A stretch of 58,512 nt of DNA from a virus (IMGVR_UViG_3300037151_000031:1-58512), one strand, 5' to 3'. Shown: positions 5,218 through 29,715, counted from the stretch's first letter. Notes: a model not told the origin generated them from the sequence alone. A program made the numbers and translations.

Positions 5218-6135
5218 ATGAGCGACGACTCCAAGCGTACCGTCGGCGACGCTGATGCCATCATCGAAGCGATGCGGTCCGCGTCTCCGCTCCACAGCAT
5301 GAGCCTCGGGGCCGACACTAACGGCGTCCCGCGCGCCGTCATGATCGTCAAGCAAGGGCACGACGTCTTCGACATGAAGCCGTTCCTCGACAAGTACCTC
5401 GTGCGCCCCGAGCGTCGGAAGGGAACGGCGACGTTCACGACGCTCGCCTCGTTCATCCACCACGCGAATCGCTTCAAGGACGAGGACAGCGCCATCTTCT
5501 GCAACGACAGCCAGAGTTCCCCGGGGCTGACGTCGGTGCTCGACTACCACCAGCGCACGGCCAAGGGTCTCCCCCAGTTCGGCGAGCATCGCGGGCACTA
5601 CTCCTTCCCGCTCTCCGACGAGTGGAAGGCGTGGAAGGCGAAGAACGGCGTAGTCATGGGTCAGACGGACTTCGCCCGATTCCTCGAGGACCGCGTCGTC
5701 GACGTTGCGGACGCCGCGCGGGAAAGGCCGGACGGCTCCGCGTGGACCTGGGCGACCAAGCTCGGGCAGAAGTTCGCGTCCGCCGCCGAGCTGCTCGAAC
5801 TCTCCAAGGGGCTGCATGCGACGGTCAAGCACGAGGTCAGAAACGAGGGGAATCTCTCGACGGGCGAGAAGGCCATCTTCTTCGCGAAGTCGAACCTCGA
5901 CCCGAACGGTCAGCCGCTGGCCATCGCCTCGGCGTTCCTCATCGGCATTCCGGTCTTCAAGCTCGGGCCGCTCTATCCAATCCCGGTGAGGCTTCGTCAC
6001 AAGATCGACGAGAAGGTGACCTGGTCATTCGAACTCGCGAGGCTCGATGCCGTGTTTGAGGACGCCATCGACGGGGCGTGCTCTGAAGCCGCTTCGGCAA
6101 CCGCGCTCCCGCTTTTCCGTGGCAGCCCAGAGTGA
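5218..6135 (+). CDS. DUF2303 (YfdQ-like) protein
   Basis: PERRKGTATFTTLASF, VLDYH, SDEWKAW, QTDFARFLED, IGIPVF motifs. Confidence 0.8.
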   Translation: MSDDSKRTVGDADAIIEAMRSASPLHSMSLGADTNGVPRAVMIVKQGHDVFDMKPFLDKYLVRPERRKGTATFTTLASFIHHANRFKDEDSAIFCNDSQSSPGLTSVLDYHQRTAKGLPQFGEHRGHYSFPLSDEWKAWKAKNGVVMGQTDFARFLEDRVVDVADAARERPDGSAWTWATKLGQKFASAAELLELSKGLHATVKHEVRNEGNLSTGEKAIFFAKSNLDPNGQPLAIASAFLIGIPVFKLGPLYPIPVRLRHKIDEKVTWSFELARLDAVFEDAIDGACSEAASATALPLFRGSPE

Positions 6136-6136
6136 C

Positions 6137-6361
6137 ATGGGGTTCCTGACTCGTCGCTTCGCCATCGACACCGCCGATGGCAGAACGTTCTTCTTTTATT
6201 CAAAGAACGCGCAGACTGCTCTTGATGAGGTCCGGCGACTCCGTGTCGCCGAGCCGCTCATCGTGCGTCGAAGCGGCTACATCGACGGGCACGGCCGGCT
6301 CGTGGAGGAGGACCCTCGCGACTCCGGCCGCTTCATCGAAGACAAGCGAGTCGGCGCATGA
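6137..6361 (+). CDS. hypothetical protein
   Basis: Tightly packed operon gene. Confidence 0.5.
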   Translation: MGFLTRRFAIDTADGRTFFFYSKNAQTALDEVRRLRVAEPLIVRRSGYIDGHGRLVEEDPRDSGRFIEDKRVGA

Positions 6362-6543
6362 GCAGCGAGGCGTGCTTCGCGAGCTTCCGCGTCTCGCGCG
6401 CGAAGAGAGACCCCGACGCGGCGGCTCGGGCGGCACGTGCGTATGAGAGGCGCAGAATAGTCGAGATCATCAAGGCCGTACCCGTGCCCGGCCGAGACAT
6501 GCGCGCCGTCGTCGAGCGCATCCTCCTGGCGATTGGGGCGTGA
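6358..6543 (+). CDS. hypothetical protein
   Basis: Overlapping start and stop with neighbours. Confidence 0.5.
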   Translation: MSSEACFASFRVSRAKRDPDAAARAARAYERRRIVEIIKAVPVPGRDMRAVVERILLAIGA

Positions 6544-6722
6544 TGCGGATTGTGGCCAAGGTGCGCGGCTATCAGCGCGGCATGCACTCGGTCTTCGTTG
6601 TGGAATGCCAGACCTGCCGCCGCACGTATCAGACGACTGGAGATCGGGCCGACATCGAGCGGCGAGGGTCATGCAATGGCTGTCGGCCCAAGGCGCGCGA
6701 CGGCCGCGGGCGCTTCGCTTGA
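6540..6722 (+). CDS. small zinc-ribbon protein
   Basis: CQTC...CNGC. Confidence 0.5.
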   Translation: MMRIVAKVRGYQRGMHSVFVVECQTCRRTYQTTGDRADIERRGSCNGCRPKARDGRGRFA

Positions 6723-6787
6723 CCCGCGACGTCGAGGTCGTGCTCTGCCTGGTTTTCTTGCTCGCCTTCGTGGTCGGCCGGTGCGGC

Positions 6788-7282
6788 TCAGAAAAACGCG
6801 GCGACCAGCGCTCGGGCGGTCTTGATCCTCGAGCGCGACAAGTCGAGCCGGTGGTCGCAGTCTCGGCCCCAGGCCAGCTGCGCCAGCCGTTCGTCGACAG
6901 GGTGCCGTGCGCAGAACCGGAAGCTCTCGTGCGCAGCCGCCAGCCAGATGGGCGCTGCGGTCGCCGGGTCCATCAACTCCGCCCGCATGTCCGACACGGG
7001 ACGGCTGAGCAGCCTGGACGCGTAGTCAGGGTTCACCTCGAGGACGCCCAGGCTTGCCCCGCTGTCGCCCTTGGCGTCGGGCTGGAAGCGGCTCTCGCGC
7101 TCTGCCCAGGCAACCAGGATGGCGGCCGTCAGGGGCACGTCAGGGCCGTCTACGCCCATGAACGGGCTCGCCTCGGCAGCGGCCACGAAAGCGGCGGCTG
7201 TCTCGGGATACGAGGCTAGCCACCCGCTCCTGGGAACCAGGGAGATCATGGCAGCAAGGACCGACAGGATGAGGTTGTTCAT
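6788..7282 (-). CDS. lytic transglycosylase (SLT/lysozyme-like) with hydrophobic N-terminus
   Basis: AERESRFQPDAKGDSGASLGVLEVN resembles the ES..GLMQ signature; starts MNNLILSVLAAMISLVP. Confidence 0.65.
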   Translation of the reverse strand: MNNLILSVLAAMISLVPRSGWLASYPETAAAFVAAAEASPFMGVDGPDVPLTAAILVAWAERESRFQPDAKGDSGASLGVLEVNPDYASRLLSRPVSDMRAELMDPATAAPIWLAAAHESFRFCARHPVDERLAQLAWGRDCDHRLDLSRSRIKTARALVAAFF

Positions 7283-9555: not shown

Positions 9556-10188
9556 ATGCCGACTGCAAACATCAAAGACTTCATCGGAAGACGGATTCTG
9601 GTTTCGTCCAAGTACGGATACCTCGTCGAGGAACTGAAGGTGCTCGAAGTGTCGCCGGCGGGGACATATGTGCGGGTCATGGACGTGCACGGGAGGAAGT
9701 ACTGGCGCGGGGTCGTCGAGGTGCTTATGGTCGAAGCGCTGACGGACTTCGAGCCAAGGCCTCGGACGGTCGACGTTCCGGAGCACCGTTTCGGGTGTGG
9801 GTTGGAGGACGTGGCCAATCGCGGCATCGGCGAACCTGGACGGGACGCGGAGCTCGCGGCCGTACAGACGCAGCTCGCCGACGCGCTCAAGAGCTGCGGA
9901 GAAGCCGCCGACCTTCGGAAAGCGAAGGACGTGGAACTCGCGGCCGCGCACGAGGCGCTCGCGCAATCGCGCCTTGAGAACAAACTGTACGTCGAGGCGC
10001 GCGTCGCGAATGCCCTGATCGCGGAGCGGGACTTTCTCGCCGCGACATTTGAGCAGAGCGCGAAGATATTCGAGACGTCGTGGCGTGAGGACGGCACCCG
10101 AGAAGACGCAAAGTCCTACGACGCGTGCCTGAAAGGGATCGCGGAAGACATCCGTGCACGCATGTCGAAGACAGCGGGGCATCCGTAA
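9556..10188 (+). CDS. hypothetical protein (beta-rich N-terminus, coiled coil)
   Basis: GGAG RBS; stop overlaps the next start. Confidence 0.6.
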   Translation: MPTANIKDFIGRRILVSSKYGYLVEELKVLEVSPAGTYVRVMDVHGRKYWRGVVEVLMVEALTDFEPRPRTVDVPEHRFGCGLEDVANRGIGEPGRDAELAAVQTQLADALKSCGEAADLRKAKDVELAAAHEALAQSRLENKLYVEARVANALIAERDFLAATFEQSAKIFETSWREDGTREDAKSYDACLKGIAEDIRARMSKTAGHP

Positions 10189-10643
10189 TGCCCATTCGAC
10201 CCGAGATGGCCGCGCGGTATCCGGCCGACTGGCGCGAGATCACGGCCAAGATTCGCAAGCGCGCCGGCAACGCGTGCGAGTGTCGCGGCGAGTGCGGGCA
10301 TTCGCACGGCGTCGTGGGCCGCAGCATTGTCGTTGGAGCAAACGGGTACCTCGAGTCTTCTCCGGCGACGTGCGATGCGCCCAATGGCGCGATGGTCGTC
10401 CGCGACCGGAAGGAGCCGCAGCACTGGGCGATGTGTCTCGGCGACGGAAGTCAGCCTCGAGCCGTCAGGATTGTCCTGACCGTTGCCCATCGCGATCACA
10501 CTCCGGAGAACGTCGCGGACGACAATCTTTTCGCGGCTTGTCAGTTTTGCCATCTCGCATACGACCGCGACGAACACACCAAGAACTCCCGAGCCACGCG
10601 CGCGAAGAAGCGAGCCGTCGGCAACCTGCCAGGTATCGAATGA
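10188..10643 (+). CDS. HNH endonuclease-like protein
   Basis: YPADWREI...CEC...LTVAHRDHTPEN...NL..ACQFCH. Confidence 0.8.
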   Translation: MPIRPEMAARYPADWREITAKIRKRAGNACECRGECGHSHGVVGRSIVVGANGYLESSPATCDAPNGAMVVRDRKEPQHWAMCLGDGSQPRAVRIVLTVAHRDHTPENVADDNLFAACQFCHLAYDRDEHTKNSRATRAKKRAVGNLPGIE

Positions 10644-19808: not shown

Positions 19809-20521
19809 CAGCCAAGATCTTCCTCGCCACGCCCACGCACGACGGCAACGTGACTTCGTCATACAGCAACTCTGTCCTGCGGCTCATCGGCTCGCAGACA
19901 TCCTTCTCCGTCGTGTGCGGTCATCGAGTCTATGACAACGACGTCGTGCGCGCGCGCTCGTGGCTCGTGGCCGACTTCCTCGAGGTCGAAGACGCCACGC
20001 ACCTGCTCTTCGTGGATTCTGACTGCGATTTCACTCCAGCCATGGTCGAAGGCATGCTCTCCACGGGTCACGACTTCGTCTGCTGCCCATATCCGAAGAA
20101 GCGGCCAGGGCCAGCGATCTACCCGGGCACGTTCCTCAGCGACAAGCCCGAGGTCGACGCCGAGCACAAGTGCGTCGAGATCGCCGGCTTCGGTCTCGGC
20201 ATGACGCTCCTGTCGCGAAGCATGCTCGAGACGATGGTCTCGTACTACGCGCCGACGCTGACCTTCGGCGACTACCGCAAGGGCCTCGACAAGAAGTCCA
20301 CGTCGGTCGGCATCTTCAACCTCGTGATCGAGAACCCGGGCGAGAACGGTGTCCTTCACTCAGAGGACTACTCGCTTTCGTACCGCTGGAGGGCCATCGG
20401 TGGACGACTCTGGCTCTACCTCGGCGCCGGCGTCTGCGGACACACGGGTACTTGTAGATATACGGGCAGCGTTGATGACTTCAAGAACATGCGAATGCCG
20501 AAAGAGGAGGTCGCACCATGA
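19805..20521 (+). CDS. GT-A glycosyltransferase
   Basis: KIFLATP, VRARSWLV, THLLFVDSD, GFGLGMTLL, SEDYSLSYRWR. Confidence 0.75.
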   Translation: MTAKIFLATPTHDGNVTSSYSNSVLRLIGSQTSFSVVCGHRVYDNDVVRARSWLVADFLEVEDATHLLFVDSDCDFTPAMVEGMLSTGHDFVCCPYPKKRPGPAIYPGTFLSDKPEVDAEHKCVEIAGFGLGMTLLSRSMLETMVSYYAPTLTFGDYRKGLDKKSTSVGIFNLVIENPGENGVLHSEDYSLSYRWRAIGGRLWLYLGAGVCGHTGTCRYTGSVDDFKNMRMPKEEVAP

Positions 20522-20727
20522 AGAACGAGAAGATCGAAACGGCCATCGCGGAGTCGAGGCTTCGACAGGCGGAGCTCATCGCCGCAGTCGAGCAGAACGC
20601 GAATGCGCTGCAGGCGTTCAAGGCCGCAGCCGATGGCCTGGACCGCGCGAAGAGGGCGTCCGCGATTGCAGACGAAGTGCTTGTGAAGACCATCCACGGA
20701 GAAGGGCTGCTCGACTATGGCCAGTAA
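20518..20727 (+). CDS. hypothetical coiled-coil protein
   Basis: GAGGAGG RBS; ATGA overlap. Confidence 0.55.
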   Translation: MKNEKIETAIAESRLRQAELIAAVEQNANALQAFKAAADGLDRAKRASAIADEVLVKTIHGEGLLDYGQ

Positions 20728-20953
20728 GACGTGTCCGATGTGCAAGGGTCAGCGGCTCGTTCTCCGAGACATCGGCGAAGGCCGGAAGAAGCAGACGCAG
20801 TGCAGCCAGTGCCTCGGCATCGGCCAGGTCCACGACCCGAACGCAGCCGAGATCTACAAGGCCGCCGTCGCCGACGTCGAGCGCTGCGAGCAGGAACTCG
20901 CCGGCGCCAGGCTGCGGCTCGAGACCGCGGCGGAAGCGGTGAAGCGTGAGTGA
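20717..20953 (+). CDS. small protein with DnaJ-type CxxCxG motifs
   Basis: CPMCKG...CSQCLGIG. Confidence 0.55.
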   Translation: MASKTCPMCKGQRLVLRDIGEGRKKQTQCSQCLGIGQVHDPNAAEIYKAAVADVERCEQELAGARLRLETAAEAVKRE

Positions 20954-21494
20954 AGCTAACGCAGTGAATACGAGGCGGCCACAACGAGCGATTGAGCAGC
21001 AGTGAAAACGAAAGCGGACCAACGAGCGACTTCTGCGCAGTGAAAACGAGCGAACCAGAGCGAGCGAAGCCACAACAGTGAATGCGAACGTTCAACAGCG
21101 AGCGATCACCGGCCAGTAAAAACGACGAAAGCACAGCGAGCGAAGGTTCCCCAGTGAAACGAGAGCCCGACAGCGAGCGAGATCGAGAACCAGTGAAAAC
21201 GAGAGTGCTCCAACGAGCGAGTCTTGTGCAGTGAAAACGAAGAAGATGCAGCGAGCGAAGATAAGAGAACGAGAGCGATAAGAAGACAGCGAGCGACCGT
21301 GCCGCAGTGAAACGAGACGGAAGCAACGAGCGAAGCACCGCCAACGAAGAGACAGGACCTCAGCGAGCGAGCAGCAGTGAAAACGACGAAGGAGTAGCGA
21401 GCGAGCCTCGTGCAGTGGAAACGACGAAGGAGCAGCGAAGAAGCTGACAGCGTGCGAAAGCTTTGCAGTGAACGCGAAGGTAGAGCAGCGAGCG
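20954..21494 (+). ncRNA. dual-repeat guide-like array 1 (TIGR-like), about 14 units of 38 nt
   Basis: Alternating CAGTGAAAACGA and CA(G/A)CGAGCGA separated by 8-nt variable spacers; the 12-mer starts at 20962, 21000, 21038, 21076, 21114, 21152, 21191, 21229, (21267), 21305. Confidence 0.85.
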
Positions 21495-21518
21495 CACACA
21501 CCACCAGGAGAGCGAAAC

Positions 21519-22028
21519 ATGGCGAACCAAGCAGATGTGATTCCGATGGGCCGGCTTGCAGAATCGGCGACACGCATCAAGGCCGCGATGAGGGCAGGCG
21601 ACACCGGCTACGCGATGATCGCGCACGAGGTCGTCAGCATCGAGCAACGATGGGACATCCTGAAGGGAGAGGCCGAAGGGCGGTCCATCCATCGATGGAT
21701 CAAGGAAGAGATCGGCACGAAGGACCTGGCGTGGTGGCGGCGTCTCGCGAGTGGCGTGACGCGCCTGTCCAGGCATGTCGCGGCGCACTTCTCGACGCAG
21801 GCGATCTTCTGGCTGACGCAGAGCGTGCCAGAGCGCTACCTCGACGAGGTGCGTGACGCTTCGCTCGCGCTGCAACGACGCGAGAAGCAGCCTTCGCCCG
21901 TGACGCTCGCCCAGGCGAAGCGGATGGGGAAGACGATCCTGCCAGCCCACCCGAAGGTCGACGGCTGCGCAGACTGCGAGGCCCTCCGCGCACAGGTGCG
22001 GGAGATGGGGGGCGAACCGAGAGTGTGA
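21519..22028 (+). CDS. hypothetical protein between the two arrays
   Basis: AGGAG RBS; helical, with C-terminal CADC. Confidence 0.7.
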   Translation: MANQADVIPMGRLAESATRIKAAMRAGDTGYAMIAHEVVSIEQRWDILKGEAEGRSIHRWIKEEIGTKDLAWWRRLASGVTRLSRHVAAHFSTQAIFWLTQSVPERYLDEVRDASLALQRREKQPSPVTLAQAKRMGKTILPAHPKVDGCADCEALRAQVREMGGEPRV

Positions 22029-22282
22029 AAATTGACCAGTGAATACGAGGCGGCCACAACGAGCGATCGAGCAGCAGTGAAAACGACGAAGGACCAGCGA
22101 GCGACCGCAGAACAGTGAAAACGAAGAAGACGCAGCGAGCGATTCATGCGCAGCGAATGCGAAGTGCGGGCAGCGAGCGAGGTTCGCCCAGTGAAAACGA
22201 GTCTGAGACAGCGAGCGCGCATGCGAAGAATGCACAGCGCGCGATACTCCTAGAGTGAAGACGACGATGTAGCAGCGAGTGA
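22029..22282 (+). ncRNA. dual-repeat guide-like array 2 (TIGR-like), about 7 units
   Basis: Same repeats; the 12-mer starts at 22037, 22075, 22113, 22151, 22189 (38-nt period). Confidence 0.85.
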
Positions 22283-22309
22283 CCCACCACAACCGAAAGG
22301 ACAACGACC

Positions 22310-23440
22310 ATGAGCATCGAAGAAGCAGTGAACATGCTGGCCCCGAAGAAGCGAACGCGGGTCGCGCGAAAGGTGATGCCGGACGCGCCGGTGATTCCCG
22401 TGCATGAGGAGCCTCGCAAGGAGCTGCGACGTCTCGTCGGCATGCACGCACGGTGGACCCGTGAAGCGCGGACCTTCGGGCAGATGGTCGGGCCGATCCC
22501 GATCTTCCCCTCCGATGGCAAGCCGGTCATCGAGAAGGGGAAGCTTCCGAAACGTCCGACGGACAAGGACCCGGTCACCGTCGTTGCCATCAAGGCGGCG
22601 CAGAAGCAGCTCCAGCATGCCGCGGGCGAACTGGAGAAGGCGATGGTCGCCGAACTGAAGAAGCTTCCCGTCTTCAATCTCTTCCTCGACCGCGTCTACG
22701 GCATCGGCCCGGTCGTCGCTGCATACATCGCGGCAAACGTGGACATCAGCCGCGCGTGGCAGCCCAGCAAGCTGGCGAGATACTTCGGCAACACCCCAGG
22801 GCCATCGGGCCGCATGGAGCGAAGGGTCGCGGGTAGCGCGCCGAAGTATGCGCCGAACGGAGAACTCGACAGCGCGCGCGGCGGCTCCCCCAACGACACG
22901 ATGAGGACCATCCTCTGGCAGGGCATGGTCGCGATGCGAAAGAACTCGGCCAAGTTCACCAGGTGCGCAGCGCACGATGCAGCCTGGGGCGAACTGAAGC
23001 CAGCCGACAGAGCAGCCTTCCGTCGCGAGAAGTGCGCAGAGTGCCCCGAGTGCGCGAAGACCGCCTCCCCGTTCGGCCAGACGTCGAAGTACCTGGATCG
23101 CTGGGCAGAGTCACTCCACGCGAGCCGGACCATGCCGTACGTGAACCCAGACGGGAAGCCGACGAACATCGACAAGAAGGGCCGCATGAAGGCGGCCGAC
23201 GTCTTCATTCACGACCTCTACATGATCATGCGCGCCATCGACGGGCTCGACGTTTTCCCGACGTATGCGACCGTGAAGCGAGATCGAGAGCATGGGATGA
23301 ACGGCCCAGTGAACAACGGCCAAGGCGCCAAGATGTCCGTCGACGAAGCTCTCGCCATGATCGGCGAGGTGGGCAAGCGGCCAGCCACCCGCTTCATGTT
23401 TGATGCCGATGTGGAAGAGGAGGATGGCGATGACGAGTAA
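22310..23440 (+). CDS. Nop-domain / IS110-C-terminal-like protein without nuclease domain (TasA-like)
   Basis: Coiled coil, then LDRVYGIGPVVAAYIAANVDISRAWQPSKLARYFG (Transposase_20/Nop-like) and VFIHDLYMIMRAIDGLDVFPTY; no N-terminal DEDD RuvC; adjacent to the arrays. Confidence 0.75.
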   Translation: MSIEEAVNMLAPKKRTRVARKVMPDAPVIPVHEEPRKELRRLVGMHARWTREARTFGQMVGPIPIFPSDGKPVIEKGKLPKRPTDKDPVTVVAIKAAQKQLQHAAGELEKAMVAELKKLPVFNLFLDRVYGIGPVVAAYIAANVDISRAWQPSKLARYFGNTPGPSGRMERRVAGSAPKYAPNGELDSARGGSPNDTMRTILWQGMVAMRKNSAKFTRCAAHDAAWGELKPADRAAFRREKCAECPECAKTASPFGQTSKYLDRWAESLHASRTMPYVNPDGKPTNIDKKGRMKAADVFIHDLYMIMRAIDGLDVFPTYATVKRDREHGMNGPVNNGQGAKMSVDEALAMIGEVGKRPATRFMFDADVEEEDGDDE

Positions 23441-23819
23441 GCGAAAGCCAGTGCGGACGTTGACATGCCGACTCTGCGGGGAGCGCAAGGTAAGTGCCAG
23501 TGAAGGTCCGTGCGCCTCGTGCCAGGAATTGGGAAGCTTCCGGAGCGCTACCCATGACGCGTGCCGCATGGCGGCGCTATACAAGATGTACCTGGACTCG
23601 TATCGAGGATGGAGTCCTGGGACTACACACGTCGAGGAGTCGATCGCCTGTGCTCTGGGCGTGATGTATTCGCGCCGTGATAAGCACAGGGGAGCGGTTC
23701 TTCTGCCAGAGGACCTGGTCGCCAGGGTCGACCAGGCATTGCCGAAGGCGCCTCTCGCCCGTCTCGCGTGCATTCGTGGCAGCTATGAGAAAGCGAAGGC
23801 GGAGCCAAGTGACGGCTGA
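23430..23819 (+). CDS. hypothetical zinc-finger protein
   Basis: CRLC...CASC. Confidence 0.55.
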   Translation: MTSKRKPVRTLTCRLCGERKVSASEGPCASCQELGSFRSATHDACRMAALYKMYLDSYRGWSPGTTHVEESIACALGVMYSRRDKHRGAVLLPEDLVARVDQALPKAPLARLACIRGSYEKAKAEPSDG

Positions 23820-24738
23820 AGTCGGGAAGTGGAATCCGCAGCTTCACGCCGAGTACAGAGCAATGCCAGAGGGCAGCCGAAAGCGTGCGCTCGCTGGGAG
23901 GATCATTCGAGAGAATGAGCCGCTAATCAAGACGATCGTGAATCAACTCATCAATAAAGGCGCGCCGACCACTCGCAGGAAGAGCGCCGCCGCACGCATG
24001 GGAGGTTGCCAAGGACTAGGCGAAATTGAATGGGAAGACGCAATGCAAGCGGGCCGAATTGCGATGCTGAAAGCGATCGGTAGTTTCGATCCATCGAAAG
24101 GAAAGATCGCTTTCCACTTCCTGATGCAGGTGCGGTACCAGTTACAAAAAATCGAGACGTTCGAGCTCCACCTTGCCCGGAGCCCGCAGGGCAAGGCGGA
24201 CCAGCGGCCGAAGCTCGGGTTGGTCGGGATGCCTGCGACGAGCGAGGAGCACTCGGCGAGCTCGACGGAGTGGGGGTACGTGAACGCGACGACGGACCTG
24301 GGGGAGATGCTGCCGAGCATGACGCCGACGGGGTCGCATGATCGGCTCGGGGTCGTCGCCGAGGGGGTCGACTGGGTCGGGGGCGTGGAGGGGGTGACGC
24401 CGGAGCTCTTGGCGGAGTGGGAGGAGACCGGGGAGTGGCCGGACAGCGTCGAGGCCTTCGTCGAGGCGAGGAAGCCGGCGGTCGTCTACAGCATCCCGAA
24501 GCCGGCGTTGACCGGGTGGAGTCTGTTCCTGGGCAAGGTGAAGCTCGCGGTGTCGGGGCGAGTGGGCGCGGCGAAGGCGTTTCAGGTCTACGCCATGGGG
24601 TGCGCGGAGCTCGGGGAGCGCTGGCTACCAAGAGCGGCCTTCTTCAAGGCTCTCGAGCCGAAGCTGGTCAGGCAGATCACGATCGGAAGCGGCTACAAGT
24701 CAGAGAAGGGGCTGGCAGGTCTTAGGCTGGTCGCGTGA
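23809..24738 (+). CDS. sigma-70 region 2-containing transcription factor with atypical C-terminus
   Basis: IIRENEPLIKTIV...EDAMQAGRIAMLKAIGSFDPSKG is sigma region 2-like. Confidence 0.7.
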   Translation: MTAEVGKWNPQLHAEYRAMPEGSRKRALAGRIIRENEPLIKTIVNQLINKGAPTTRRKSAAARMGGCQGLGEIEWEDAMQAGRIAMLKAIGSFDPSKGKIAFHFLMQVRYQLQKIETFELHLARSPQGKADQRPKLGLVGMPATSEEHSASSTEWGYVNATTDLGEMLPSMTPTGSHDRLGVVAEGVDWVGGVEGVTPELLAEWEETGEWPDSVEAFVEARKPAVVYSIPKPALTGWSLFLGKVKLAVSGRVGAAKAFQVYAMGCAELGERWLPRAAFFKALEPKLVRQITIGSGYKSEKGLAGLRLVA

Positions 24739-24784: not shown

Positions 24785-24994
24785 ATGGTAGCTAAGAAGA
24801 CGCCCAAGATGACCGCGCCAAAGAAGAGGCTTCTCTCCCACATCGACCGGGCCAAGCTGGTCGTGGAGACGTCCTGCGCGGAGCGGACGATCAAACGATG
24901 GGAGGACGGCGACCCCGTAACGGCCGCGACCGCGATCCGGCTGAAGAAAGCGGCGCGCAAGCTGGGTATCCCCATACCCGAGGCGAGGGCGTGA
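24785..24994 (+). CDS. small HTH protein
   Basis: RAKLVVETSCAERTIKRWEDG. Confidence 0.55.
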   Translation: MVAKKTPKMTAPKKRLLSHIDRAKLVVETSCAERTIKRWEDGDPVTAATAIRLKKAARKLGIPIPEARA

Positions 24995-25407: not shown

Positions 25408-25809
25408 CTAGCCGTCGACGAACATCCAGTCCTCGATAAGCTGCGAGACCGTCTTCCCCTCCCGTTCGGCCCGGGCCTCGAGCCGCCGGATGGCCTCGGG
25501 CAGGAGCCGCAGGGACCGGAGCTTCCGTGAGCGCTTGGACTCCGGCGTCTTGCCGCTGGGGCCGCTCGGGGACGGGCGCTTGAACCCGTGGGCGCGCAGC
25601 CAGCGCCAGAGCGGGGAGTCGACGTCGTACTGCCGGCCGAGTTCGCGGTATGTTCGAGTGTCGACGAGGAAGCCGTAGCCGTCCTGCAGCACCATCTGCC
25701 CGTTGACGTCGTTCACGTACAGACGCTGCTTCTTCCGTGGCCCCGAGGTGATGGCGAAGCTGTCGGAGAGACCCGCGGCGAGGCGTGCCTTGTGGCCGGC
25801 TTCGGTCAT
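25408..25809 (-). CDS. protein with C-terminal ribbon-helix-helix
   Basis: SLRLLPEAIRRLEARAEREGKTVSQLIE; GGGGAG RBS. Confidence 0.65.
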   Translation of the reverse strand: MTEAGHKARLAAGLSDSFAITSGPRKKQRLYVNDVNGQMVLQDGYGFLVDTRTYRELGRQYDVDSPLWRWLRAHGFKRPSPSGPSGKTPESKRSRKLRSLRLLPEAIRRLEARAEREGKTVSQLIEDWMFVDG

Positions 25810-26162: not shown

Positions 26163-26486
26163 TCACGCGGCGGAGGTAACTAGCTCTGGGTATCCGTCGC
26201 CCTCAAGAAACGCCGCGAGTGTCGGGCCAGTCACGCGTTCAATCAACGCACGCTCGCGAGACAGATTGAAACGCACGACGGTCCACACGCCAACGGCCGT
26301 GCGGCTTCGATTGTTCGTCTCGCCCGCCCATCCGTTGAGCACAGGCTCGCCGCTACGGTTTTTCCGCTCGGGAGAAGTGTGGAGCAAGTAGCGCTCACTT
26401 CCTGTGCTCGTGTCCAGAATGCGCGTGAGATATCCCGTTGCGCCCTCTCCCAATACGCTGCCGTAGTAGTCATGGTCGATCCACAT
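26163..26486 (-). CDS. hypothetical protein
   Basis: GAGG RBS; first sizeable ORF after the leftward promoter. Confidence 0.55.
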   Translation of the reverse strand: MWIDHDYYGSVLGEGATGYLTRILDTSTGSERYLLHTSPERKNRSGEPVLNGWAGETNNRSRTAVGVWTVVRFNLSRERALIERVTGPTLAAFLEGDGYPELVTSAA

Positions 26487-26640
26487 GGTCTAGCCTCTCT
26501 AGTGTCGGCTCGAATGCCGCGCACGACGTCCCCCGAGATGGGGGGGCGCCGTACGCGATCGGCGAGCTACGCGCGAGCGGCCCGGCGCGTCATCGGAAAA
26601 GCCTTTCGTTTGTGGGGTGGCGTCCCTTGCTACATGACAG

Positions 26641-26669
26641 AATATACGCGCGGTTCCCGCGCGCGTCAA
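26641..26669 (-). promoter_or_regulatory. leftward sigma70 promoter with palindromic spacer
   Basis: TTGACG-cgcgcgggaaccgcgcg(17)-TATATT. Confidence 0.7.
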
Positions 26670-26689
26670 GCGCCTGCCTAGCTTTTCTT

Positions 26690-27905
26690 ATGTCCGAAGA
26701 GTGGCTGTCGATTTCAGAACTCCGCCCATGGGCGAAAAACCCGCGCAAGAACGATGGAACGCCTGTCGATAAGGTGGCCAGATCCATCGAACGGTTCGGA
26801 TTCGTGGCCCCCATTGTCATATGGCGCAGCGCGGGCCGAATGGTGGCCGGCCACACCAGGCTGAAAGCGCTCACGAAGCTTCTGGCAGCCGACCCCGCCT
26901 TCATCCCGAAAGGCGCGCCTCAAGCCGGCGTGGCCCGAGTGATCTGGCACGAGTTCGAAAGCGAGGAAGAGGCGGACGCATATGCGCTGGCGGACAATCG
27001 CCTCAACCAGGATGCGGCGTGGGACGACAAGCTACTCGCGGAGATCCTTCGCGGCATTGGCCAAGAGCGATCGAAAGCAGCCGGCTTCGACGACAAGGAC
27101 ATCACAGCGCTGCTGGATGCGGGTGAAGGGCCGCCCGAGGAGGACGACGTTCCGGACCTGCCCAAAGACCCCGTCACGAAACCAGGCGACATCTGGCTCC
27201 TCGGCAAGCATCGGCTCGTGTGCGGCGATAGTTGTCAGCCTGCGGTGGTTGCTCACGCAGGGGGGGGGGGCACTCGCGGACCTGCTATGGACCGACCCGC
27301 CGTACAACGTGAGTTACGTGGGCAAGACGAAGGACGCGCTCACCATTGAGAACGACACCATGGCCGACGGAGACTTCCGCCAGTTCCTCGTGGACGCGTT
27401 CAGCGCCGCATCCACCGGCATGCGCGACGGAGCCGTGTTCTACGTCGCACACGCGGACTCGGAAGGCCTCAACTTCCGTGGCTCGGTCCTCGATGTCGGC
27501 TGGAAGCTCGCACAGTGCCTCATCTGGGTGAAGGACCGATTCGTGATGGGGCGTCAGGATTACCACTGGCGTCACGAGCCCATCCTCTACGGCTGGAAGC
27601 TCGGGGCCGGTCACCGGATGCTCGAGGACCGGACTCAGGACACCGTCTGGGAGATCCCGCGTCCAGCCAGAAACGCTCAGCACCCCACGATGAAGCCGCT
27701 GGCGCTCATCGACAGGGCCATCCGGAACTCGTCCAATCGGGGCGACCTCGTCCTGGACACCTTCGCGGGCAGTGGCTCGAGCCTGATCGCATGCGAGGCC
27801 GCCGGGCGATGGTGCGCCGCCGTCGAACTCGACCCGGCATACTGCGACGTCATCGTCGAACGGTGGGAGAACGCCACCGGCGGGAAGGCCAGCAGAGCCA
27901 GCTAG
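26690..27905 (+). pseudogene. ParB/Srx-domain N6A/N4C DNA methyltransferase, frameshifted at G11 (27260-27270)
   Basis: ParB part (NPRKND, SIERFGF, VAGHTRLKA, LADNR, GKHRLVCGDS) and MTase part (TDPPY, HPTMKP, LDTFAGSGS) are in different frames; removing one G joins them. Confidence 0.85.
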
Positions 27906-28542: not shown

Positions 28543-29001
28543 TCACCGCGACATCGGGCCCCAGGCTGGGTACTGCTTCGGAGGTAGTCGCTCGACAGTA
28601 GCGAGGCCGCGGACCCTCACGAGGCGGTCCTTGGTTCGCTGAATCCGTGCGGCCGAGAACTTCCGCCAAGGGATCAGGACGAGCGGGTGTGTGGGTGTCC
28701 AGACGTAGACCTTGATGCCAGCCAGTTCGAGCATCTCGAACATGGCCCGTTGGCACGTTCGGACGTAGTCGTGGGCGCTCTTCACCTCCACGCCGTAGGT
28801 CTTACCGCCTTCGCGGACGAGGAAGTCGGGCCAGCCGTTTCGTGTGATCGTCTTGCCCTTGCTGATGGCCGCCTCAGCGAAACGCTGCTCGACCCGTGTG
28901 CAAGACCACTTCGGGTCATCGTATTGTGCGTCCGACAGATTCTTCAGCTGCGAGGAAAGCCGATCGACCAGGTACTCCTTCTTTTTGCGTAGAATGGTCA
29001 C
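28543..29001 (-). CDS. VRR-NUC-like PD-(D/E)XK nuclease
   Basis: GWPDFLV...GVEVKS...Q...LELAGIKVYV; start uncertain. Confidence 0.7.
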   Translation of the reverse strand: MTILRKKKEYLVDRLSSQLKNLSDAQYDDPKWSCTRVEQRFAEAAISKGKTITRNGWPDFLVREGGKTYGVEVKSAHDYVRTCQRAMFEMLELAGIKVYVWTPTHPLVLIPWRKFSAARIQRTKDRLVRVRGLATVERLPPKQYPAWGPMSR

Positions 29002-29037
29002 GCCGCAAGTCTTACTACGATCCACTACGTTCGCCAG

Positions 29038-29715
29038 ATGAGACGCGTTCGATCGCCCGAGAAGCCGCTGAGTCCGTCTGCCGCCGCCCTGTTGGAGGTC
29101 ACCCGCAAACTCGGACAGGTCAGAATCGTGGCTCAAGAACTGGGGGTGAGCGAAGGGGCCATCCGCCATCTGCTAAACGGTCTCCATGTGCCGAAGCTGC
29201 CATTGCGGCAGAACGCTGCCCGTCTCTGGCAGATCCCGGTTGACGGATGGGAGTTGCCAGAGCCGGCCCCTTCGGCCGAGATAAAGGCGCCTCCCGCCGT
29301 AGTGGAGGCTAGTACGATGCAGCCTGGGGGTCAGGGGGTGGCTACGATCGCCGGACGCGCCGCTGTCCTCGTCGAGTTCGAGACGGAAGCCCTCGCGGCC
29401 TCCTTCCGAGACAAGCTCCACAAGGCAGGCGTGGTCGCGAAGCTCGTGGAGACGAAGACCGACGAGCTTGACCCGAACGCCGGACCGGAGGTCATGGCGG
29501 CCGAGTCGCTGGGGTACCTGCGCGGCGTCGTGCGGGATGCTCCGAAGGGGAGGCAGACTCAGGCGGGGATATCGGCGGCCAAGGCCGTCTTAGATCATGT
29601 CCACGCCATCACACCTCCACCAAAGCGGCTGGAGGACGTTGACGTGCAAGTCAAGCCGACGCTTAGCCTTGAGGACGAGCTCCGTCTCGACGAGGAACGC
29701 GGCGCCCAGCAATGA
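29038..29715 (+). CDS. probable terminase small subunit (N-terminal HTH)
   Basis: IVAQELGVSEGAIRH; directly upstream of the large subunit. Confidence 0.55.
   Translation: MRRVRSPEKPLSPSAAALLEVTRKLGQVRIVAQELGVSEGAIRHLLNGLHVPKLPLRQNAARLWQIPVDGWELPEPAPSAEIKAPPAVVEASTMQPGGQGVATIAGRAAVLVEFETEALAASFRDKLHKAGVVAKLVETKTDELDPNAGPEVMAAESLGYLRGVVRDAPKGRQTQAGISAAKAVLDHVHAITPPPKRLEDVDVQVKPTLSLEDELRLDEERGAQQ

Follow-up and report, generated by a model that had tools for sequence, protein, structure and literature searches.

What does a Tas-like protein that lacks a nuclease domain do for the phage that encodes it, and what is the role of a cysteine-rich insertion inside its Nop-like region? This question is raised by tasA, a gene at positions 22310–23440 (+ strand, stop codon included) of IMGVR_UViG_3300037151_000031, a viral stretch of 58,512 nucleotides that is called the window hereafter. 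The 376-residue product is a solo-Nop TIGR-associated protein according to profile searches, Foldseek and an AlphaFold2 (AF2) model, and it is probably a TasA, an effector without a nuclease that serves the dual-repeat TIGR-Tas system of a tailed phage. A Tas protein that binds instead of cutting belongs to the already published TasA class, the commonest Tas effectors (Faure et al. 2025, PMC12045711), and is the ordinary part of our finding. The locus represents a further member of this known system type, with an undescribed, evolutionarily labile zinc-type variant of one loop.

A solo-Nop Tas protein beside a guide array

The source record, a 58.5-kb IMG/VR virus rated 69% complete, encodes terminase, portal, protease, major head, sheath, tape-measure and baseplate proteins, and such a set makes tasA a phage-borne gene. 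Its reading frame starts with ATG and is open for 385 codons in all, opening 9 codons upstream of the ATG; a longer N-terminus that could hide a further domain is therefore impossible.

A word-index search with the protein recovered 5 relatives out of 2800 candidates, and tblastn found no match in 50,697 phage records. Profile searching of 1.84 billion representatives returned 1131 sequences at E ≤ 1e-3, 117 of them at E ≤ 1e-30. The family alignment to which all counts out of 112 refer (A2) contains the window protein and 111 of the relatives P0001–P0121, ten rows shorter than 270 residues having been left out and P0122–P0152 not being used. Against PDB, the A2 profile matched TasR (9mty) at E 6.1e-31, TasH at E 1.3e-19 and, weakly, IS621 at E 0.006. 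The AF2 model built on A2 has a predicted local distance difference test score (pLDDT) of 89.4 and a predicted template modeling score of 0.88; its Foldseek ranks 1–10 against PDB are all TasH or TasR, with probability 1.00, followed by IS621 and ISCro4. The first-pass annotation, made from the DNA alone, stated that the protein has neither a RuvC/DEDD N-terminus nor an HNH domain, and our searches agree: no HNH, RuvC or DEDD Pfam family was found in the protein or in any of the 112 rows, and the coiled coil begins already at residue 35. In the model, only 34 residues precede this dimerization hairpin (residues 35–116, helices 35–60 and 88–116 by DSSP; 22412–22657, +), which aligns to the coiled coil of TasR and TasH. 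Fold, family, adjoining array, lack of a nuclease domain and pattern of conservation are all observed or computed for tasA itself.

Several of these matches could also suggest a decayed transposase gene of the IS110 family. Transposase_20 is the single Pfam match of the protein, below threshold (E 0.0077, residues 126–165), and the only family detected over the alignment (20 of 112 rows); phrog_4285, a "transposase", matches at E 3.7e-4, and IS621 appears in the PDB profile comparison. The Tas structures, however, score at least 25 orders of magnitude better than IS621, no DEDD domain exists in the protein or the 112 rows, a TIGR array adjoins the gene, and the similarity corresponds to the known shared Nop-like RNA-binding domain. 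The chance that the gene is a transposase remnant is practically nil; the candidate is effectively refuted by the PDB profile, the Foldseek ranking and Pfam on the 112 rows.

The array is split into two blocks on the same strand as tasA. Block 1 (20963–21495, +) has a 38-nt period, each unit being composed of a AGTGAAAACGA-type repeat, a 9-nt spacer, a AGCGAGCGA-type repeat and another 9-nt spacer, with repeats of 11 and 9 nt and some units degenerate. Block 2 (22038–22282, +) ends 27 nt ahead of the tasA start codon. Both repeats start with AG(T/C)G and end with CGA, which is the symmetry expected of a guide gripped by a symmetric dimer, following the description by Faure et al. (2025, PMC12045711). 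A dual-repeat array adjoins tasA in all five loci inspected, i.e., the window and L002–L005; the loci with tasA relatives comprise two from viral contigs, two from metagenome contigs and none from genome contigs. Two array-pattern scans of viral contigs gave nothing new.

The arrays also carry traces of their own history. The first units of block 2 (22038–22075) and block 1 (20963–21000) differ at 1 mismatch in 38 nt and have the same spacers, and paralogous units with 1–2 changes inside spacers are seen at 21230–21258 versus 22114–22142 and at 21376–21404 versus 22076–22104. These near-copies across the blocks suggest that the array grew by segmental duplication followed by point divergence, and they are of interest for the way in which TIGR arrays acquire spacers. 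Degenerate units (21135–21172, 21250–21362, 21414–21449, 22134–22172 and 22210–22254) have lost one of their two repeats, or carry it in mutated form, so that the repeats still recognizable there are separated by gaps of 24–35 nt.

Of two functional sites of the Tas family, one is conserved and the other may be. Helix α-4 (residues 196–213; 22895–22948, +), defined by alignment to TasR and TasH, carries the aromatic-basic pair W203/K211: R199-T-I-L-W203 aligns to R234-T-H-C-Y238 of TaTasR and to the helix of SpTasH that bears W203/K211; an aromatic residue (Y, F or W) occupies column 203 in 103/112 rows, and K or R occupies column 211 in 102/112. In the PlTasA preprint (10.64898/2026.08.11.744272), an aromatic-basic pair on α-4 is placed at the DNA unwinding junction, and judging from the alignment W203/K211 is its predicted counterpart. 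The second site is a C-terminal loop (residues 317–329; 23258–23296, +) with Y319 and H328, a candidate for the processing of pre-tigRNA. SpTasH is reported to mature its guides through Y289 and H296 on the C-terminal loop, independently of metal (PMC13421893); Y319 aligns to Y289, and H328 is invariant (H in 112/112). An RNA-processing site in this loop is likely but not certain. The first-pass label "nuclease-less" consequently stands for DNA nuclease domains and does not carry over to RNA, because the Y319/H328 loop resembles the processing site of SpTasH.

What such a protein would do can be projected from published relatives. A TasA ribonucleoprotein (RNP) binds target DNA without cutting it and reversibly represses a reporter and a chromosomal gene (10.64898/2026.09.09.750476), cryo-electron microscopy structures of PlTasA retain the Tas recognition core (10.64898/2026.08.11.744272), and FpTasA, from a dual-repeat array, binds 36-nt RNAs (PMC12045711). 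From these analogies we infer RNA and DNA binding and repression for the tasA product. Two protomers would dimerize via the coiled coil of residues 35–116, with each Nop domain gripping one of the two array repeats, both of which begin with AG(U/C)G and finish with CGA. In the processed tigRNA, the two 9-nt spacers would then base-pair with one strand each of an 18-bp target, while W203 and K211 on α-4 would hold the unwinding junction; the Y319/H328 loop would probably mature the array transcript. Because no DNA nuclease is present, the bound complex would obstruct the DNA like a roadblock and thereby repress transcription or stop replication. An RNA-guided DNA binder or repressor rather than a cutter, as proposed in the first-pass annotation, is thus the most likely activity by homology to the published class. 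In view of that class (Faure et al. 2025) and of the TasA repression preprint, the proposal was right yet not new.

A target marked by TasA could in principle be cut by another protein, and an HNH nuclease near 10188 and a VRR-NUC nuclease at 28543 had been suggested to act in trans. Both open reading frames (ORFs) exist: ORF 10125–10643, in the 10.1–10.6 kb interval, shows H/N/H-like Cys/His motifs by eye, and ORF 28543–29169 has a weak VRR_NUC match in Pfam (E 9.2e-4, below the curated cut-off). ORFs of these types are common housekeeping nucleases of tailed phages. Nothing ties either of them to TasA, and neither is close to tasA or oriented like it. The HNH-like ORF lies 12 kb from tasA and has no Pfam match at E ≤ 0.001, and the VRR-NUC ORF, 5 kb away, is encoded on the other strand, at 595 nt upstream of an oppositely oriented terminase gene. 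There is no nuclease gene in the operon of the window or of L002, and published TasA RNPs bind without cutting (10.64898/2026.09.09.750476), so that cleavage in trans appears very unlikely to us.

The insertion-1 module

The feature that sets this protein apart is a module of 45 residues (213–257; 22946–23080, +) with C219, H222, C245 and C248 as putative zinc ligands. The motif C-A-A-H ... C-A-E-C-P-E-C that the first-pass annotation had pointed out in the Nop-like region is present, and it is a true insertion, since TasR and TasH have no residues opposite the cysteine-rich stretch in the alignments and 84 of the 112 loops at this site have at most 24 residues. Loop length is bimodal, the other 28 rows having at least 32 residues. 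The protein contains exactly four cysteines (C219, C242, C245 and C248), all within 30 residues. No array repeat was found inside tasA, so intragenic guide units do not account for the insertion. In the AF2 model the module forms three short helices with pLDDT 93–98, and its net charge is +3.0 on average. The combination of module, acidic tail and a downstream dual-repeat array is also seen in a partial relative (L005).

Occupancy of the four ligand positions is all-or-none. All four are filled in 23 of the 112 rows, one in 5, none in 84, and never two or three, so the Cys/His cluster is not due to chance; the single ligand-type residue in 5 rows is apparently coincidence. The 23-row module alignment is invariant at T217, C219, H222, C245, C248, P254 and G256. 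C242, on the other hand, varies freely (C in only 10 of the 112 rows), and because it is not conserved among the module ligands the site can be written as C-x2-H-x(8–28)-C-x2-C. The ligand pairs are 20–28 residues apart in 22 of the 23 rows, mostly 22–23, and 8 apart in one. A C-x2-H ... C-x2-C arrangement is classically the mark of structural zinc sites with tetrahedral geometry in cytoplasmic nucleic-acid-binding proteins. Most likely, one zinc ion bound by C219, H222, C245 and C248 would hold this small helical module together, in the manner of a zinc knuckle or zinc ribbon.

Alternatively, the cluster could bind no zinc at all and form disulfides, hold another metal or an Fe–S center, or be merely a conserved helical hairpin. 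The isolated module has no Pfam family up to E 10 and matches no known zinc-domain family, which is what one would expect if so. Set against this are the all-or-none pattern of C-x2-H ... C-x2-C (23/23) beside a freely varying non-ligand C242, and the ligand-pair spacing given above. We consider a zinc-free cluster unlikely, and leave it a minor share of the weight.

The Cys3His module seems to be undescribed so far. The main texts of the primary TIGR-Tas papers that were searched do not mention zinc, and in them "cysteine" occurs only in the title of a reference; the clade may, however, be depicted already in fig. S14 of Faure et al. Among the matches listed, joint mentions of tigRNA or TIGR-Tas and zinc are, by title, only in reviews or unrelated methods papers.

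The location of the module speaks about its possible function. By residue count on the alignment, K246-Q247-R248-T249 of TaTasR corresponds to K211-N212 of the window protein, the insertion, and then T258-S-K-Y-L. The site is therefore predicted to match Q247–T249 of TaTasR, which is "insertion 1" of a recent preprint (10.64898/2026.09.09.750476), where it is described as sitting inside the spacer loop of the guide. In PlTasA, hairpin C, after α-4, touches DNA where the strands separate (10.64898/2026.08.11.744272). By analogy to these structures, the module more likely serves as a brace close to the nucleic acids than as a platform for docking. The first-pass idea that it docks a partner finds no support, because the insertion-1 position, after α-4 with W203/K211, adjoins the guide RNA and the unwound DNA in solved Tas structures.

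The same site accepts other insertions. A second, cysteine-free insertion of 37–45 residues is observed in A2 rows P0041, P0042, P0046 and P0099 (and P0061), making 5 rows whose long inserts are of this different kind; because it occupies the same position, the insertion-1 loop can be regarded as a hot spot for alternative modules. In L002 TasA (5887–6993, +), the wedge segment is greatly enlarged, in place of the insertion-1 module.

How the module spread was examined with a quick LG+G4 tree of the A2 rows from which the insert columns had been removed. The tree is unrooted, and the changes on it have no direction, i.e., they may be losses or exchanges. It requires 17–18 changes of module state, at least 10 of which are forced by well-supported branches alone, and the module label is barely clustered (39 of 500 shuffles were as low). 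A tree constrained to unite the 23 module rows as a clade is worse by 536 log-likelihood units (approximately unbiased test, p 7e-47). A single origin as one clade is thereby rejected, and the module is scattered over the tree. The flanking residues K-x-[S/T] ... P-x-G remain in 17 of the 84 short loops. Since most relatives are without the module, it is dispensable for the core function.

Several points weigh against our interpretation of tasA as a guided roadblock with a zinc-held loop, besides the missing Pfam counterpart of the module. What has been published on repression and structure was obtained with stem-loop TasA (MbTasA and PlTasA) and not with dual-repeat TasA, for which RNA binding is what is reported in the literature available to us. 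In the C-terminal loop, column 319 is Y in 67/112 rows and F in 9/112, including the three closest relatives (P0001–P0003), and H328 lies two residues past the position aligned to H296 of TasH; self-processing is uncertain for these reasons. The patchy spread of the module says only that it is unneeded for the core function, and not what its role is. Finally, no target for the tandem spacers was found in the 58.5-kb record. All adjacent spacer pairs, in two loop/edge assignments and three joinings, were compared with the two strands of the window, the array itself excluded. The single 2-mismatch hit came from the plain A+B control joining, and 3-mismatch hits were given by 10 patterns in the two tandem joinings and by 8 in the control. 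With shuffled spacers, each pattern had on average 0.09 hits with three mismatches and 0.007 with two. Since tandem-spacer hits are about as frequent as with shuffled spacers, self-regulation of the phage is not indicated.

The module is nevertheless a compact, confidently modeled unit predicted to lie at the loop between the two spacers of the guide and the DNA-unwinding junction. About one in five members of this large, phage-borne, dual-repeat TasA family carries it, and losses or gains of it have been numerous. Because of these repeated losses or gains, the family offers natural with/without pairs for the effect of the loop on guide loading, target affinity and mismatch tolerance. Tuning of the insertion-1 loop matters for the engineering of very small binders that do not depend on a protospacer-adjacent motif (PAM).

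Acidic tail, orf169 and downstream genes

The C-terminal tail (residues 365–376; 23402–23437, +) is acidic and disordered, with pLDDT below 50 for residues 371–376 in the AF2 model. Its 12 residues, D-A-D-V-E-E-E-D-G-D-D-E, are indeed the final ones, as the first-pass annotation reported, and the last 15 residues have a net charge of -9. The tail is not a special feature of this protein but a trait of the whole family: net charge of the last 15 residues is ≤ -3 in 78/112 rows and ≤ -5 in 60/112, with a median of -5. An A-A-E-like C-terminal motif occurs in 54/112 rows, the window protein being without it. Self-masking of the basic nucleic-acid surface and partner docking are both possible roles.

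Between the two array blocks lies orf169 (21519–22028, +), a 169-residue all-helical ORF and a candidate TIGR-TasA accessory gene. Its homologue in L002 (5148–5582, +; 31% identity, 43 identical columns) is directly upstream of the array and tasA; two word-index homologue searches found the window and L002 copies only. This layout of orf169, array and tasA recalls the operons of Faure et al. (2025, PMC12045711), in which arrays lie between tasA and a ParB-like gene (tasParB, matched to ParB via HHpred), yet orf169 shows no ParB signal. Pfam gave no match up to E 10 and no ParB-like domain, and Foldseek against PDB gave nothing at E ≤ 0.001, the best match having E 0.74 and SopB and ParB appearing only at E 6–8. 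A weak exonuclease match was found in PHROGs (E 0.0079), and none of the leads from the Atlas reaches the threshold, be it DUF3102, DUF6192 or a ParB-family cluster matched outside its N-terminal part. The AF2 model of orf169, from a two-sequence alignment, has pLDDT 75. Complex prediction for TasA (alignment A2) with orf169 (alignment A4) scored 0.25 against a mark of 0.32, in runs made without controls.

It is tempting to join these elements and to view TasA as a recruiter whose zinc module and/or acidic tail would dock a partner, such as the orf169 product, a sigma-like factor or a host protein, so that TasA would deliver this factor to the site set by the guide. The disordered tail, acidic in 78/112 rows and A-A-E-like at its end in 54/112, conforms to what a short docking peptide would look like, orf169 is met again upstream of array and tasA in the distant locus L002, and Faure et al. 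(PMC12045711) describe the tasA operons with a ParB-like gene. However, L002 has the orf169 homologue while its TasA, 29% identical to that of the window, has no zinc module, and an orf169 partnership, if real, is therefore independent of the module. The module is moreover predicted at a nucleic-acid-proximal site, orf169 has neither a ParB signal in Pfam nor a significant PDB fold match, and TasA proteins are described by Faure et al. (2025, PMC12045711) as generally without clear associations with other proteins. Altogether we see recruitment as unlikely, although we would still give it some weight.

A related conjecture, which we regard as a long shot, is that the Cys3His module and the conserved, often A-A-E-ended acidic tail together form a facultative regulatory or docking add-on. 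Such an add-on might work as a switch that responds to metal or redox state, or might recruit a phage or host factor, for instance the orf169 product or the downstream sigma-like factor. If true, some phage TasA would be natural programmable recruiters or activators and not plain roadblocks, and the near-random scatter of the module would be the outcome of phages exchanging it repeatedly while adjusting this function.

Rather than repressing transcription, TasA might also serve as a DNA-bending or positioning factor for phage integration, partition or inheritance at guide-set sites. Faure et al. (PMC12045711) raise such possibilities, with a target DNA bend of ~180 degrees, the ParB-like association and inhibition of plasmid maintenance by TasR, and a ParB-N/methylase gene is found 3 kb downstream of tasA. 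That ParB-N domain, however, belongs to a DNA-methyltransferase-type gene (phrog_498, N6_N4_Mtase) that is not operonic with tasA, no integrase was seen adjoining the tasA locus, and direct TasA experiments so far show repression (10.64898/2026.09.09.750476). The odds of such a role seem poor to us, and transcriptional or replicative roadblock remains the preferred activity.

Other genes surround the locus. Downstream of tasA there are a sigma-70 region-2-like ORF (23677–24738, +; E 2e-4, below cut-off), a small helix-turn-helix ORF (24785–24994, +) and a ribbon-helix-helix ORF (25408–25809, -); because these ORFs are directly downstream, the TIGR-TasA locus can be placed within a phage regulatory gene cluster. 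A ParB-N-like ORF (26438–27349, +) and an N6/N4 DNA methylase ORF (26982–27905, +) overlap in different frames and look like a single ParB-methyltransferase gene that either a frameshift or an error in sequencing has divided. A putative 139-residue ORF (23400–23819, +) overlaps the 3′ end of tasA by 41 nt; it has two N-terminal C-x2-C pairs and no family match. Just ahead of the array, a 78-residue ORF (20717–20953, +) carries C-x2-C pairs, with DnaJ-CXXCXGXG and Lar-like hits below cut-off. Scanning of 20400–24000 for promoters and terminators gave no promoter-like site, and the number of terminator-like sites was 3, where 4.1 were expected. The role of TasA for phages may also be approached through the acidic tail that the family shares and through the small ORF that recurs with the array.

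Comparison with known systems

RNA-guided binding without cutting has analogues in nuclease-free CRISPR effectors (type IV, type V-M and Cas12k) and in dCas9, a parallel drawn in the TIGR-Tas papers themselves. Those effectors have unrelated folds, use a single long spacer and depend on a PAM, and the analogy is functional only. A closer architectural parallel is offered by archaeal Nop5 and eukaryotic Nop56/58 of the box C/D small nucleolar ribonucleoproteins (snoRNPs), as these are described in the sources consulted: they too form a coiled-coil dimer whose Nop domain grips box C/D-like motifs flanking two guides. The window TasA differs from them in having no fibrillarin-binding N-terminal domain and in being expected to address DNA rather than RNA targets; no snoRNP chain is among the Foldseek matches at E ≤ 0.001. 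The IS110/IS621 bridge-RNA recombinases share a distant Nop-like RNA-binding domain (Pfam Transposase_20) with it, whereas the window TasA has no DEDD RuvC-like domain and comes with a guide array rather than one bridge RNA.

TaTasR (PDB 9mty) and SpTasH (PDB 9w03, 9w04, 9vzx and 21kl) are alike in the coiled-coil plus Nop fold and in the kind of guide array, and SpTasH also in the Tyr and His of its C-terminal loop. Unlike them, the window TasA has no N-terminal RuvC or HNH domain, so DNA cleavage is not expected. Its wedge has ~37 residues versus 21 in TaTasR (by residue count on the alignment), and insertion 1, which amounts to 3 residues in TaTasR and is absent in SpTasH, extends to 45.

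The nearest likeness is to TasA itself, i.e., FpTasA with its dual-repeat array and the stem-loop proteins PlTasA and MbTasA. The shared traits are a solo coiled coil plus Nop architecture without nuclease domain, a phage-borne gene, a neighboring TIGR array in which two repeats alternate, separated by 9-nt spacers, and the α-4 aromatic-basic pair, together with an expected RNA-guided binding that does not cleave. What distinguishes the window protein from the known TasA is the 45-residue Cys3His module at insertion 1.

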